A stretch of 38,049 bases of DNA from Chiloscyllium plagiosum (Eukaryota): assembly GCF_004010195.1 (NCBI RefSeq), contig NC_057718.1:40523273-40561321 (forward strand), given 5' to 3'. Each line of letters starts with the position of its first letter. Position 1 is the first letter of the stretch. The notes beneath the pieces were generated by a model. The model saw nothing but the letters and a program-made list of their open reading frames with translations. It was not told the origin of the DNA and ran no database searches. Shown in pieces: positions 13,141-37,795 of this stretch. Both the position numbers and the translations under genes were made by a program.

Positions 13141-14062
13141 TACAGTTAGTAAGTTTGCAGGTAACACCAAAATTGGAGGTGTAGTGGACAGCGAAGTAGG
13201 TTACCTCAGATTACAACAGGATCTGGACCAGATGGGCCAATGGGCTGAGAAGTGGCAGATGGAGTTTAATTCAGATAAATGTGAGGTGCTGCATTTTGGG
13301 AAAGCAAATCTTAGCAGAACTTATACACTTAATGGTAAGGTCCTAGGGAGTGTTGCTGAACAAAGAGACCTTGGAGTGAGGTTCATAGCTCCTTGAAAGT
13401 GGAGTCGCAGGTAGATAGGATAGTGAAGAAGGCATTTGGTATGCTTTCGTTTATTGGTCAGAGCATTGAGTACAGGAGTTGGGAGGTCATGTTGCAGGAC
13501 ATTGGTTAGGCAACTGTTGGAATATTGCATGCAATTCTGGTCTCCTTCCTCTCGGAAAGATGTTGCGTAACTGGAAAGTGTTCAGAAAAGATTTACAAGG
13601 ATGTTGCCAGGGTTGGAGGATTTGAACTATAGGGAGAGGCTGAACAGGCTGGGGCTTTTTTTCCCTGGAGTGTCAGAGGCTGAGGGGTGACCTCATAGAG
13701 GTTTACAAAATTATGAGGGGCATGGATAGGATAAATAGACAAAGTCTTTTTCCTGGGGTGTGGGAGTCCAGAACTAGAGGGCATAGGTTTAGGGTGAGAG
13801 GGGAAAGATATAAAAGAGACCTAAGGGGTAACCTTTTCACACAGAGGGTGGTACATGTATGGAATAAGCTGCCAGAGGAAGTGATGGAGGCTGGTACAAT
13901 TGCAACATTTAAAAGGCATTTGGGTGGTATATGAATAGGAAGGGTTTGGAGGGATATGGGCCAGGTGCTGGCGGGTGGGACCAGATTGGGTTGGGTTATC
14001 TGGTGGGCATGGACAGGTTGGACCGAAGGGTCTGTTTCCATGCTGTACATCTCTATGACTCT
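13141..14062 (+). mobile_element. CR1/HER1-like LINE, 5'-truncated
   Basis: VSKFAGNTKIGGVVDSE...MEFNSDKCEVLHFG; TRGHRFRVRGERY...FTQRVVHVWNKLP; tail ctctatgactct. Confidence 0.95.
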
Positions 14063-20739: not shown

Positions 20740-21550
20740 ATTTCTGACAGCCATGCAGGCCAAGCCCCCCACTGGTCTTCTGTGTCACCTCCTCTGCAGA
20801 TATCATTTAATAGAAGACTTAATGGGCATGTCCAATTCTCAGTCACGCTTTGCTGTTCTCTGCTCTCTTTTTCCAGAAGAAGAGAAAGAAAAAGACCTGA
20901 GTGAGAGTACTGTGTGTTCACTGAAGTGATAGTGAACACCTGTAATAAGTGACTATGGAAGAGGGGCATGACATTGCATAAGGATGAGTGTCAGTTTTGG
21001 ACAGATGAGTGGGGGTATGAGGAAATGTGGAGACAGATGGATTCCCCTACATGATAAGTCAGTGTGAGGAGTGATGCACTGGTGTAATTCTGAGAAGGCA
21101 GAGTGAAGGATTGAGTTGCATGTACCTCAGGATGTAGTGTGGTACTCACCTTTAATGCTCTGTTTCTGACACAATACTACTTCAGCATTGAATCCAAGAG
21201 TGCGGCACCAAATGTAACCAACTGGCCAATCTCCAAATAGTGTTCTTTGAATTACCTGCTGACTACTTCCCATTGAGAGACAAAAAAAACTGCAGATACT
21301 GGAATCCAAAGCAGACAAGCAGGATCCTGGAAAAACACAGCAAGCCAGGCATTATAAGGAGTAGCTTCTGATGATGCCTGACTTGCTGTATCCTGATGAT
21401 GCCTGGCTTACTGTATCCTTCCAGCCTCCTGCTTGGCTTCTCCCCATTAACAAGGAAGAGGCTCCCTCCAGGCTCTTTGTGCCAGACCTGAACAGCAAGT
21501 TAGAGAACTTCACTAAAATGAAACACAGTCATTGACTTTCTACCTTCTTC
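20740..21550 (-). mobile_element. Probable decayed PIF/Harbinger Myb/SANT-like gene (two exons)
   Basis: Minus strand: VFHFSE...LFLVNG...LEIGQLV...SWIQC* before a donor AAG|GTGAGT near 21144-21152; then pyrimidine tract and KRAENSKA*LRIG...AEEV. Heavily mutated. Confidence 0.4.
21275..21439 (-). mobile_element. Degraded fold-back PLE pLTR insertion (family E)
   Basis: Arms 21313-21352 / 21399-21438, 38-nt unpaired tail, CTGATGA in a 25-bp tandem duplication, putative TSD cttcccatt/ctccccatt. Confidence 0.6.
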
Positions 21551-28490: not shown

Positions 28491-28554
28491 GTTAACTCTG
28501 TTTTCTCCTCACAGATGCTGCCAGACCTGATGAGTTTTTCCAGCAACTTCTGTT
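28491..28554 (+). mobile_element. Fold-back PLE pLTR (family D), right part
   Basis: gttaactctg...gatgctgccagacctgatgagtttttccagca, related to the family A pLTR gatgctgcctgacctgctg...ttccagca. Confidence 0.7.
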
Positions 28555-30184
28555 ACTCAAGGCATTAAATTAAATTGGCTTTTTCATTACTCATATGATC
28601 AAACATGTTCAATGAAATTACTGTAGGTGAAATTTGACCAACTGAAAGTTTGTATGGAAGTGTACAGTTAAATGTAATTATTTGCACAAGGTGTTTGTTC
28701 ATTGTTCTGCTCCCACCTTTAACACCATCAGCAGCCATGATTTAATGTTTTGCTAATTGTGAATAATCTGGCTAGCTAGTAGAGAGTAGTCTTCCGTTTT
28801 CTGCAGTCCCTCCCTCAACAAGGGATGTAACCCTCTCTGATTAAATGAACTTGGTGACAACAAACATTGTCCAATGTAGTCCTGCCAGTGAACAGAATTA
28901 CAGTGCTTTGCTCATGCCTCACACAGACACTGGACATTTCAGAACTACTTGCTGCTGGTGTTTTGTGATGACTGCAGTACTTTATAGCGCTAAATTTAAG
29001 TTGTGTCATTATGAAGATTAAAATAAAATAGGACCATAAAAGTTAACTGTCTGTTAAAAAAATGCTATTTTCCTGTCTTTGCACACTGTAATGTCATGCC
29101 AAGGTATGTTTTAAAACAAGCCCATTTTAAATAAAACCAGTAAGTCTTTTGAAGCAGCAATATTTTTCATCAAAACAGATGCTTGTTTTGAAAGCATTAC
29201 ACTTTACTGTAGCCAACACATACTTGAAACATTAAAAACAATGATGGTGATGATGGACATAGCCACACAGCTGCAAATGAGGTCATTCACCAGTTACATA
29301 CAGTGGAAGTGGTAGTTGTGCAGGCAATGTCAACCAAGTTAAAATTCCTGGTTGGAAATCTGAAGCTGAAAACTGAATTTACAAAAGGTTTATTACGCTG
29401 TAACTCTTAGGAACTGAACTGTCTTTTCTCCACTTACCAACAATAATCACTTTTTCAGTCCTGAATGGAAACAGGAAATGCATTCATTGCCTGTAGGTTT
29501 TGCAACGTTTATAATTGTTTCTAGGAACACAACCAATGAAGCTGGTTATTGTTGCTTGAGAAGATCTGAGACATTATTGAACTTTCTGTTGAAATTTGTT
29601 TTGTTCTCACATTTTTAATGTAATTATGCTTCATCTTGTCCAGATGTTGGCAGCATGTCAGAGATCACTATTTGTATATGCTGAGTGATTTCACAAAGAG
29701 ATCTCATCCTTCATGGATCATCTAACATCTATAGAGCTGCATATCATTGCCAAATTCATCAAACAATTACCCAACCATTTTCAGATAACAAACTATTGTG
29801 TGGCATAAACATTTGCAAAGTTTTCCAAAACTTTGGAAACAACTCCCAATTAGCCTTTAGAAGTACTCAGTAAAGTTTTGTAAAAGCTGCCTTAAGGACT
29901 GCACAGTCTCACAATGACTGTTTGTGATGTTACTGTACACAAACTCAGTGCATTCATAAGATTATATCTGCCTTAGCATCTCAGTTAAAACAATGAACAG
30001 AGGAATGTAGTGAAACCTTCTTGACCATTTGGCATTCAAAATAGAACATTATTATTTCATGGCTCAGAAATAATGTTAACTTTGAAAAAAATGAATTCAG
30101 TTACTTTCCTGCCATTACTTCATGATCTTTGATTTCCTCACTGGTTAATAATCAGTCTATCTCAGCCTTGGATATACCTAATGA

Positions 30185-30275
30185 GCTGAAATGTGTTGCT
30201 GGAACAGCGCAGCAGGTCAGGCAGCATCCAGGGAACAGGAGAATCGACGTTTTGGGCATAAGCCCTTCTTCAGGA
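30185..30275 (-). mobile_element. 91-bp PLE pLTR insertion (family A) with hammerhead core
   Basis: Perfect 11-bp TSD atacctaatga (30174-30184, 30276-30286). Minus strand CTGAAGA-a-GGGC-ttat-GCCC-aAAAC-GTC (G12 changed to A). Confidence 0.9.
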
Positions 30276-30588
30276 ATACCTAATGACCCAACCTTGATCA
30301 CTCTCTGCGGTGAAGAATTGACTGACCCTGAGAGAAAAAATTCCTCCTCAGCTTTGTCTGAAATGGGCAACCCCTCACTCTGAGTTTATGCCGCCAGGTC
30401 CTACACTCTCCCCAAGGGCAAATAGTCGCTCCGCATACACCCTATCAAGCTGCCTAAGAATTTTATATGTTTCAATTATGGCTCCTCGCATCCTTCTAAA
30501 ATCCAATAGTACAAATCCAACCTACTCAACCTCACCTCATGAGAAAAATCCCTCCATATTCAGAATCAACACAGTAAATGTTTTCTGG

Positions 30589-31657: not shown

Positions 31658-32514
31658 AAGATTCTGGGTAATCCAAGATGGAGAAGAGGAAACATTTCTT
31701 GTTGTAACAGCTGCTCCTTTATTGAGGTATTGAGGTGAGCCTGACGTCAGTGGTGGGCAAGTTGTTGGAGGAAATCCTGAGGGGCAGGATGTACATGTAC
31801 GTGGAAAGGCAAGGACTGATTAGGGATAGTCAACATGGCTTTGTGCATGGGAAATCATGTCTCACAAACTTGATTGAGTTTTTTGAAGAAGTAACAAAGA
31901 GGATTGATGAGGGCAGAGCAGTAGATATGACCTATATGGACTTCAGTAAGCCGTTTGACAAGGTTCCCCATGGGTGACTGGTTAGCAAGGTTAGCTCTCA
32001 CGGAATACAGAGAGAACTAGCCATTTGGATACAGAACTGGCTCAAAGGTAGAAGACAGAGGGTGGTGGTGGAGGGTTGTTTTTCAGACTGGAAGCCTGTG
32101 ACCAGTGGAGTGCCACAAGGATCGGTGCTGGGTCCACTACTTTTTGTCATTTACAGAAATGATTTGGATTTGAGCATAAGAGGTACAGTTAGTAAGTTTG
32201 CAGATGACACCAAAATTGGAGGTGTAGTGGACAGCGAAGAAGGTTACCTCAGATTACAACAGGATCTGGACCAGGTGGGCCAGTGGGCTGAGAAGGGGCA
32301 GATGGAGTTTAATTCAGATAAATGCGAGTTGCTGCATTTTGAGAAAGCAAATCTTAGCAGGACTTTTACACTTAATGGTAAGGTTCTAGGAAGTGTTGCT
32401 GAACAAAGAGACCTTGAAGTGCAGGTTCATAGCTTTTTGCAAGGTTTGAGAAGGTTTGTGACTCAGGTTGAGGTTTAGGGTATAGGTTTGCTCACTGAGC
32501 TGTAGGTTTGATAT

Positions 32515-32554
32515 CCAGACATTTCATTACCTGGCTAGGTAACATCATCAGTGG
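32515..32554 (-). ncRNA. Minimal hammerhead ribozyme, mirror copy with one stem III change
   Basis: Same as the + copy but GAAAT-GTC instead of GAAAC-GTC. Confidence 0.7.
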
Positions 32555-32664
32555 CGACCTCCAAGTGAAGCGAAGCTATTGTCTCCTGCTTTCTATTTAT
32601 ATGTTTACATATTTACATGTAAATAGAAAGCAGGAGACAACAGCTTCGCTTCACTTGGAGGTCG

Positions 32665-32704
32665 CCACTGATGATGTTACCTAGCCAGGTAATGAAACGT
32701 CTGG
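32665..32704 (+). ncRNA. Minimal type I hammerhead ribozyme, intact core
   Basis: CCA-CTGATGA-t-GTTACCT-agcc-AGGTAAT-GAAAC-GTC-TGG: stem I CCA/TGG, 7-bp stem II, palindromic ACGT stem III, predicted cleavage after C32701. Confidence 0.85.
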
Positions 32705-33443
32705 ATATCAAACCTACAGCTCAGCGAGCAAACCTACACCCTAAAGGTTCATAGCTCCTTGAAAGTGGAGTCACAGGTAGATAGGATAGTGAAGAAGGCA
32801 TTTGGTATGCTTTCTTTTATTGGTCAGAGTATTGAGTACAGGAGATGGGAGGTCATATTGCAGCTGTACAGGACATTGGTTAGGTCAATGTTGGGATATT
32901 GCGTGCAATTCTGGTCTCCTTCCTGTCGGAAAGATGTTGTGAAACTTGAAAGGGTTCAGAAAAGATTTATATGGATGTTGACAGGATTGGAGGATTTGAA
33001 CTATGCGGAGAGGCTCAACAGGCTGGGGCTGTTTTCCCTGGAGTGTCGGAGGCTGAGGGGTGACCTTATAGAGGTTTATAAAATTATGAGGGGCACGAAT
33101 AGGGTAAATAGGCAAAGTCTTATCCCTGAGGTGGGGAGTCCAGAACTAGGGGGCATAGGTTTAGGATGAGAGGGGAAAGATATAAAAGAGACCTGAGGGG
33201 CAACATTTTCACGCAGAGGGTGGTACGTGCATGGAATGAGCTGCTAGATGAAGTGGTGGAGGCTGATACATTTAATTGCAACATTTAAGAGACATTTGGA
33301 TGGGTATATGAATAGGAAGGGTTGGAGGGATATGGGCTGGGTGCTGGCAGGTGGGACTAGATCAGGTTGGCATATCTGGTTGGCATGGATGGGTTGGACC
33401 GAAGGGTCTGTTTCAATGCTGTACATCTCTATAACTCTATTAC

Positions 33444-34231: not shown

Positions 34232-34784
34232 AATCTTCTGGGATTTTCCAGAATTTAAGGATACTTAGACAATTGCTATGAATGCATCCACTATCTCACT
34301 AGCAACTTCCCTTGGAATTCTAGGACACAATCCATCCGGTCCAGGAGACCTTTTGGTCTTTAGTCACATTTGTTTCCCGGATACTACTTGTCTGTTGATA
34401 GTTATTGTGTTTATTTGCTCCACCACTTTAGCTCCTTGACTTGTAGAGTTGTTAGAATGCTATTAGTGCTGTCAATGGTATATGAGTTGGATTTTTTCCA
34501 ACTCATATACCATTTTCTGGTTTCTCATTATTATTTACTAACTGGCCTGTATTCTCTTTGGCCTCTCATTTCCTTTTCGTATAATTAAAGAAGCTCTATC
34601 TGTTCATTTCAAATACATTTGCTAGTCTGCCCTGATTGTACGTTTTCACATGTTTTATTGTTTTTTGATCATCTTAAAACTATTTTAAATATCTGGTGTA
34701 CCATTAATCTTTACTATATTGTAAGCTTTTACTTTCAATTTGATGCTATCTTTAACTTTCTTCATTAGCTATGATTGGTGTATT

Positions 34785-34964
34785 GAGGAGAAAGTGAGGT
34801 CTGCAGATGCTGGAGATCACAGCTGAAAATGTGTTGCTGGAAAAGCGCAGCAGGTCAGGCAGCATCCAGGGAACAGGAGAATCGACGTTTCGGGCATAAG
34901 CCCTTCCTGAAGAAGGGCTTATGCCCGAAACATCGATTCTCCTGTTCCCTGGATGCTGCCTGAC
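34785..34964 (-). mobile_element. 180-bp fold-back PLE pLTR insertion (family A)
   Basis: 14-bp TSD atgattggtgtatt (34771-34784, 34965-34978); 53-bp arms 34854-34906 / 34912-34964 with 1 mismatch. Confidence 0.93.
34904..34937 (+). ncRNA. Minimal hammerhead ribozyme core (family A)
   Basis: ttc-CTGAAGA-a-GGGC-ttat-GCCC-GAAAC-ATC-ga; core boxes intact, ACGT palindrome changed to ACAT. Confidence 0.7.
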
Positions 34965-35961
34965 ATGATTGGTGTATTCCCTTCCTAGAGTCCTTCTTCC
35001 TCAATGGGAAATATCTTTGCTTTGATTCATGAAATATTTTCTTAAACATTTTCATTGTTCTTCAACCATCTTTTACATTGACTCCTTTCCTAGTCCATTC
35101 CAGCTCTGACCTCATCACAATGTAATTACTCTTATTTAAGTTCAGCACAAATGTTTCTCATCCAAGTTTCTCACTCTCAAATTGAATGCTAAATTCTATC
35201 ATGTTATGATCACTGTTCCCTAGAGGGTTCTTTAACTCTGAGATCATTTTTTACAACTACCTGTTTACACGTTATCAATTCCAAAATTGACTAATTCCTG
35301 GTTGGATCCACAATACATTTTACGAGGGAAGTGTCCCAAATCCACTCAATGAGTTCTTCCTCATGGCAACTTTGCAGATTGGAAAAATCAAAATGGCATG
35401 AAAATTAAAGTGACCCATGATTATGCCACATCACAGAACTTTTAATGCAACTGAAAATCCACTATCAGTTGTGTTTTATACTCTGCTTTATTTGGCATTT
35501 AATTAATTCTTGCAGAATCAGTCCAACTTTTGTTTTTAGCTTCTGAGGTTTTACGTCCAAATCTTTTCCTTTTCCAGCATGTTTAACTCCAGAGTTGCCT
35601 TTCACATTGTAATTTTTCCTGTGGGTGTTTCCCTATACCTAGATCTACATGTGTCTTCCAAACACATTTTAAGTCCTAACAAAATTGTTATTTCTCATCC
35701 ATTTGTAAACTCCCACCTGCATCCCTGCAGGATGAACAATAATGTTGCTGTCTATTGCTGTTCTCCTTCTCTCAGATGCTGGCAGAATAACTGTGTGAAT
35801 TTTCAGGGATATCTTTGATATCATTCCTCTTTCAAAGTCCATTTCCATGACAATGTGAATCACATTCTTTCCAGGTAGGACTGTTGTTTGGTTACCCTTG
35901 AGACACCAACACTCTTTTATCATGGGAAGTGACTTGATACTTGAGAGTGTTACTATTTACA

Positions 35962-36065
35962 GTTAAAAATCACACAACACCAGGTTATAGTCCAAACCTG
36001 TTGGGCTGGTGTTGTGTGATTTTTAACTTTGTCCACCCCAGTCCAACACTAGCACCTCCAAATCA
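35962..36065 (+). mobile_element. 104-bp fold-back PLE pLTR insertion (family C)
   Basis: 8-bp TSD tatttaca (35954-35961, 36066-36073); arms 35961-35983 / 36006-36028; 37-nt tail; homologous to 37697-37795. Confidence 0.8.
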
Positions 36066-37696: not shown

Positions 37697-37795
37697 TGGT
37701 TTGGAGGTGCTGGTGTTGAACTGGGGTGTACAAAATTAAAAATTGCACAACACCAGGTTATAGTCCAACAGGTTTATTTAGAAGCATTAGCTTCC
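37697..37795 (-). mobile_element. PLE pLTR fragment (family C)
   Basis: Reverse complement matches 35995-36065; ends at attagcttcc. Confidence 0.75.

Follow-up and report, generated by a model that had tools for sequence, protein, structure and literature searches.

In the window, the stretch of 38,049 nucleotides of Chiloscyllium plagiosum DNA analysed here (contig NC_057718.1, positions 40,523,273 to 40,561,321), a reverse transcriptase (RT) ORF fragment of a LINE, which we take to be of the CR1 type, lies at 31726-33169 on the + strand and is interrupted by an insert of 310 bp at 32435-32744. The fragment was matched by Pfam RVT_1 at 31978-32475 (E=8e-15), and excision of the insert restores the RT frame. 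The insert is bounded by an exact 12-mer, with the left copy, LINE sequence, at 32423-32434 and the right copy, whose first A is possibly derived from the arm, at 32745-32756; such a repeat is expected by chance with a probability of ~3e-5, allowing ±10 nt of slack at each end of the insert. A paralogous LINE at 13319-13463 presents the empty site (95% over 146 nt), and the 12-bp target-site duplication (TSD) claimed in a preliminary description of this DNA is borne out by both observations. Pfam searches with 118 of the window's 224 ORFs (at least 55 codons) detected LINE RT and endonuclease pieces only, and no host protein domain.

Architecture of the insert and neighbouring fold-backs

The inverted arms of the insert (32474-32604 and 32615-32745) are 131 nt long and 96% identical, with five mismatches, two of them at CpG, and a spacing of 10 nt. 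Length and identity agree with the preliminary description, but the arms belong to unequal units. The left unit (32435-32606, − strand, 172 nt), which is probably a terminal-repeat segment of a Penelope-like element (PLE), exceeds the short inverted unit on the right (32615-32744, + strand) by 39 nt at its 3′ end, and both 3′ ends face outward. The extra 39 nt form a one-sided, A+C-rich 3′ tail at 32435-32473 on the − strand (70% A+C in the tail region), the term tail being used as defined in passages of PMC3846280, PMC8557442 and PMC11167929. The centre had been described as a 10-nt loop; the spacing is correct, but it is made up of a 2-nt loop and an 8-nt near-duplication, the head-to-head junction ATATGT-TT-ACATAT followed by the near-duplicate occupying 32599-32620. 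Family sequence within the left unit ends at this junction, at 32606. A TATA-like box at 32595-32601 (− strand), identified by its match to the consensus, precedes an initiator-like TCACTT by 35 nt, and its copy on the + strand carries one change. The window contains no second copy of the 310-bp hairpin.

The tail end (32435-32443) resembles the target sequence after the TSD (32757-32765), giving a 21-nt repeat with 86% identity including the TSD. This likeness may reflect a homology-guided choice of site, or chance.

Other fold-backs were observed in the window. A second hammerhead-bearing fold-back of a different family is located at 34771-34978 with a 14-bp TSD (34771-84 and 34965-78); its body, 34785-34964, follows the same plan, with the long arm on the − strand, a short arm of 56 bp and the centre at the hammerhead core. 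The second family has the same hammerhead core and a different, paired stem II. Single-arm copies of it at 30184-30276 (94%), flanked by a repeat of ~11 bp as judged by eye, and at 2022-2158 (84%) both begin a few bases before the hammerhead core, and a further 34-nt piece lies at 28514-28547. Short inverted pairs were also found at 21310-21441 (51 nt at 80%) and at 35961-36028 (23 nt at 100%), the latter with a related copy near 37713-37768.

Hammerhead motifs and predicted RNA folding

The right unit contains a minimal type I hammerhead motif at 32665-32704 on the + strand, with a predicted cut after C32701. The motif consists of a 3-bp stem I, the core at 32668-74, a 7-bp stem II, GAAA at 32694-97, the palindrome ACGT at 32697-700 and C17 at 32701. 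A bulged U (32675) follows A9, and the pair 10.1-11.1 is G-U (32676/32693) instead of the G-C that is typical of, and not obligatory for, minimal PLE hammerheads. The elements of the minimal PLE hammerhead core, namely CUGANGA, GAAA, UH, the bulge after A9, a long stem II and a palindromic stem III, were all found. The intact + strand hammerhead with a palindromic ACGT stem III was thus confirmed as first described, the bulged U and the G-U pair being additions to it. A second minimal motif lies on the − strand at 32515-32554, with a predicted cut after 32518. It had been regarded as a mirror copy of the first, and such a copy is indeed present, but read on the − strand it is a hammerhead in sense orientation, whose ACGT palindrome has decayed to ATGT at 32521. 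At 32526, which mirrors the G-U position, no variant was found among the mapping rows listed, and the same rows held no compensatory stem changes.

A minimal hammerhead descriptor gave two matches in the window, both in the insert, and 100 shuffles gave one match in total. A search with Rfam models returned no hammerhead match for the whole window (E≤1) or for the right arm (E≤10). Rfam microRNA matches below the gathering threshold were rejected as generic hairpin matches. Hammerhead patterns gave no matches in viral contigs and two in metagenome contigs, L001 and L002, which represent the same locus. This locus was rejected as a relative, being AT-rich (29% GC) with an unrelated hammerhead-like motif and without similarity to the window; the motif (L001 2642-2671, − strand, equal to L002 3084-3113) is minimal hammerhead-like, with a bulged base and an ACGT palindrome, in a contig rich in decayed palindromes.

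According to passages of PMC4209133, metazoan PLEs can carry two minimal hammerheads on opposite strands, separated by 100-700 bp. The motif in the insert resembles the motifs described there in being of type I, with a 7-bp stem II, an unpaired base between 9 and 10.1, a palindromic 15.2-16.2 and a short stem I, and differs from them in having G10.1-U11.1 for the conserved G-C and a stem I of 3 bp instead of 4-5 bp. The earlier assignment to the minimal PLE type, of the kind that cleaves as a dimer, agrees with this description. The activity of minimal hammerheads is reported to be low even as dimers (PMC4209133), and that of PLE hammerheads to need the PLE protein (PMC11167929). In an unconstrained cofold of two motifs, a non-hammerhead duplex reached -29.9, against -15.5 for the partial dimer structure (stem I excluded).

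An ATG at the start of stem II (32674-32676, + strand; mirror 32545-32543) is a candidate ORF start, placed as in the anole element discussed below. The frame from this ATG is open to the element end on the + strand and contains one CpG-derived stop on the − strand; open frames of 37 codons are expected by chance 17% of the time. Counted from the ATG, the predicted cut site lies at +28, the 3′ end of the short unit at +71 and that of the long unit at +111.

The hairpin RNA was predicted to fold at -249.9 kcal/mol (z=-32), a value equalled by 0/100 shuffles, with a longest perfect duplex run of 56 bp. In RNA of the full element, the predicted pairing probability of stems I and II was 0.000 on both strands, and forcing the hammerhead fold cost ~70 kcal/mol. 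In the isolated 61-nt motif, the hammerhead stems were predicted with pairing probabilities of 0.83-1.0, at a stability no better than that of shuffles (z=-0.98). Read-through RNA of either strand contains the antisense arm ahead of the hammerhead; RNA started at the centre is free of the antisense arm and retained stem II (P 0.83-0.98). Masking of the ribozyme by its own antisense, as had been proposed, is thermodynamically supported for read-through RNA but is not predicted for RNA starting at the centre.

Family copies and relation to Penelope-like elements

Four public runs from four organisms (X1, X5, X15 and X21) were mapped on the reference 32360-32617, which covers the left half; X21 is an RNA run from a different organism than X1 and X5, which are DNA-like. 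The element family is high-copy: three contig runs gave thousands of matching records each. The family records leave the reference at 32606 into one common upstream sequence (35 in X1, 36 in X5 and 21 in X21), and the family depth collapses beyond this position. Since the records continue past 32606 with a common sequence, the hairpin centre is not a family end; the family as a rule extends beyond it, and insertion is therefore the likely moment at which the mirror arm was made. One family contig extends 1135 letters past the tail.

The right-arm base is the family majority in X5 and X21 at four of the five positions where the arms differ, the fractions in X1, X5 and X21 being 0.97, 0.98 and 0.95 at 32482, 0.86, 0.95 and 0.69 at 32521, 1.0, 1.0 and 0.93 at 32578, and 0.40, 0.66 and 0.66 at 32494, respectively; the fifth mismatch, 32600, is outside the mapping rows listed. 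It is therefore the left arm that has decayed, including its stem III palindrome; the imbalance in mutations, 4 vs 0 or 1 on the two arms, does not reach significance (p 0.125-0.375). The CpG of the stem III palindrome is variable in the family, with C>T at 32520 in 16-19% of the contig depth. At 32460-32461 in the tail, the insert has a pair of neighbouring bases in the reverse order from that in at least 96% of the family depth, and the family form, as judged by eye, extends a stem that closes an A+C-rich loop with the short-arm end.

Among the 24 pieces listed of 28,753, eight have at least 10 foreign letters past the 3′ end. Two of these eight end at 32434, a position confounded with the reference end, and four of the six others end within 32470-32479 (p ~0.002 if uniform). 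This suggests that the short-arm end is a recurrent family end, as far as can be judged from 24 listed pieces that were selected by the tool as the longest, some of them at joints, that carry 6-19 other letters and whose ends may reflect subfamily divergence. Piled-up starts or ends of molecules were not among the mapping rows listed. None of the 349 X21 reads (0/349) was at least 99% alike, so none can be assigned to the locus of the insert.

By these features, the insert is very probably a severely 5′-truncated PLE stub composed of two head-to-head copies of the hammerhead-bearing end, and it represents one decaying copy of a PLE insertion pattern that has already been described. The features of EN+ PLEs present in it are the head-to-head terminal repeats, the 39-nt one-sided tail, the 12-bp TSD, the 5′ truncation and a hammerhead that lies in the pLTR where the ORF would begin, the ATG being placed by analogy. 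An autonomous RT/GIY-YIG partner was not recovered, so that PLE membership rests on this anatomy; protein searches with the two short frames, which are weak evidence, found no homologue. In passages of PMC3846280 and PMC8557442, a typical Penelope insertion is given as having head-to-head inverted pLTRs, a one-sided tail of 30-40 bp and a TSD of 8-10 bp. The units described there share with the insert the inverted repeat, the palindromic junction and a TATA-like plus an initiator-like motif, and differ from it in a tail of 31 bp vs 39, a TSD of 8-10 bp vs 12 and the presence of an ORF body between the repeats, in place of which the insert has only the two units of 172 and 130 nt.

A further likeness in geometry is offered by Poseidon_Ac (PAc) of Anolis, as described in passages of PMC11167929. 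In PAc, the ORF begins at stem II, the cut lies 26 bp past the start codon, reverse transcription begins in a stem-loop rich in A and C, 111-118 nt from the ORF start, and a tail of 30-40 nt corresponds to the spacing of two RT start sites; in vitro, both target strands are cut and extended, and the main template is uncleaved RNA. In the insert as in PAc, an ATG is placed at stem II (cut at +28 vs 26 bp, distal end at +111 vs 111-118), the tail region is AC-rich and the cDNA runs through an uncut hammerhead. Inverted insertions do not occur in the passages of PMC11167929 considered here. Non-LTR retrozymes, in passages of bioRxiv 10.64898/2026.07.22.740005, are likewise non-coding and PLE-related with a type I hammerhead, but they are head-to-tail tandem units, and no such head-to-tail hammerhead units were found in the insert; because it is arranged head-to-head, its two hammerheads cannot share one sense RNA. 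The insert also departs from a MITE, which has terminal inverted repeats abutting both TSDs and a fixed interior, in its 39-nt asymmetry at the left and in the continuation of the family past the centre.

Formation of the insert and its predicted transcripts

The best explanation of the insert as a whole is that a PLE stub was formed by both target nicks priming reverse transcription, to which we assign a probability of roughly 0.48. The PLE RT-endonuclease would have nicked both strands of the LINE DNA 12 nt apart, and on a sense RNA that its hammerhead had left intact, reverse transcription would have begun from the top-strand end at the distal start site (+111) and from the bottom-strand end at the proximal one (+71). 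The template was likely a longer, uncleaved sense RNA, given that each arm extends ~90 nt across an intact cut site and contains the TATA-like box. The two cDNAs would have terminated at nearly the same point, for which the 5′ end of a single broken RNA used by both is the simplest candidate. Joining of their ends, with a short templated filler between them, would have followed, and the copy would since have decayed neutrally. Two-sided priming directly explains the ends at +71 and +111; as the way in which the stub was made it has about even odds and is slightly favoured over snap-back of the cDNA, which we hold possible with less conviction.

In the snap-back account, which taken as a whole is a tentative one, the same PLE stub would have begun as a first-strand cDNA (32435-32606) that folded over at the AT-rich centre and primed a copy of itself; either an endonuclease cut or capture by the second target end would then have resolved the product at +71. 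The near-perfect symmetry of the centre, with its 2-nt loop and 8-nt stutter at a non-terminal family position, speaks for this course. Self-priming is also the published reading of palindromic junctions, there on antisense RNA (PMC3846280), and the tail has been ascribed to EN-mediated resolution (PMC8557442), both in passages of these papers. In the insert, the 2-nt loop is part of the long arm, in agreement with snap-back, and two cDNAs stopping within ~2 nt of each other at a non-family end demand of two-sided priming a shared template end; taken as a 2-nt loop plus an 8-nt near-duplicate, the centre fits either course equally. On the other hand, the family sequence beyond 32606 is without the bases needed to start the fold-back, and an extra step is required for snap-back to stop at +71. 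In addition, the second fold-back (34785-34964) has a 5-nt loop in the short-arm orientation, which a simple long-arm snap-back would not yield; a single copy supplies this argument, and recombination can invert a loop that lies between inverted arms. No paper on twin priming for Penelope insertion was found, in a search that most subscription journals were outside of.

The origin of the inverted pLTRs and tails of PLEs is called open in passages of PMC8557442 and PMC3846280. A stub in which both junctions and the centre are readable within 310 bp is a clean footprint of this unsolved step, and the loop orientations and end positions of many such stubs could separate two-sided priming from snap-back, the single locus in itself having little weight.

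It is very unlikely that the 310-bp hairpin instead constitutes a non-autonomous family of its own, mobile as a unit in the manner of a MITE or a retrozyme. The clean TSD and the compact size would suit such a family, and non-autonomous PLE derivatives are known (bioRxiv 10.64898/2026.07.22.740005, in passages), but the records run past 32606 into other sequence, where the depth collapses, and no strand-change joint is listed at the centre, although contigs may drop hairpins. The window moreover holds neither a second copy nor tandem units as in retrozymes.

With the insert taken as a PLE stub, the hairpin is a by-product of insertion and no selected role is implied. By the predicted folds, its read-through RNA would be a long dsRNA in which both ribozymes are masked, and it would serve ADAR or Dicer as a substrate. 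The long dsRNA hairpin of the preliminary description is accordingly supported by folding, but as something that a known pattern of insertion brings with it and not as a distinct type of element. In the mapping, T>C places numbered 16 in X21, 4 in X1, 4 in X5 and 8 in X15. Those of X21 include 32507 and 32523, the latter mirroring core A14, with T>C in 9/45 X21 reads and in no contig of X1 or X5. As a lead, the excess in X21 would fit A-to-I editing of the family RNA, and it is accounted for just as well by private variants of a single expressed copy. Hyper-editing of Penelope in a lizard and ADAR editing of a self-folding palindromic Harbinger in a frog are described in passages of PMC5625713, and antisense small RNAs to a rotifer Penelope in passages of PMC3846280. 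The insert is like the edited palindromic repeats (PMC5625713) in that a single repeat would give a tight dsRNA in read-through RNA; Harbinger, by contrast, is a DNA transposon whose consensus itself is palindromic, whereas the palindrome of the insert was likely made per insertion.

That the hairpin is a selected regulatory device, either an antisense-locked ribozyme or a dedicated source of dsRNA for silencing the family, has slightly less to recommend it than a mobile hairpin family and is improbable. The predicted masking is complete on both strands, with perfect duplex up to 56 bp, and both the 16 T>C places in X21 against 4 and 4 in X1 and X5 and the hyper-editing of Penelope in a lizard (PMC5625713, in passages) could be read in its favour. 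Against this reading stand the location in a decayed LINE, the four private changes of the left arm, which include the stem III palindrome, and the finding of no host protein domain in the 118/224 window ORFs tested; as for the T>C places, X21 comes from another organism than X1 and X5 and carries private changes of types other than editing that are just as large (32521 A>T, 13/46; 32562 C>G, 7/36). A fold-back artefact of assembly or library, with which a best run covering 0.69 of the sampled words of 32200-33000 and mapping confined to the left half would be compatible, is hardly credible in view of the exact TSD, the five arm differences (two at CpG), the asymmetric tail and the filler at the centre.

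A broader proposal, speculative and unlikely as it stands, is that PLEs prime their inverted ends from both nicks, at their two RT start sites, and that the very short head-to-head stubs, abundant in the genome, would serve as a source of dsRNA for conversion of core A14 to I by ADAR and for RNAs that silence the family. Whichever way the X21 library is directed, its family reads were strand-biased over the element (32441-32602), with 69.6 vs 10.9 at 32477-85 and ~2:1 in the LINE flank.
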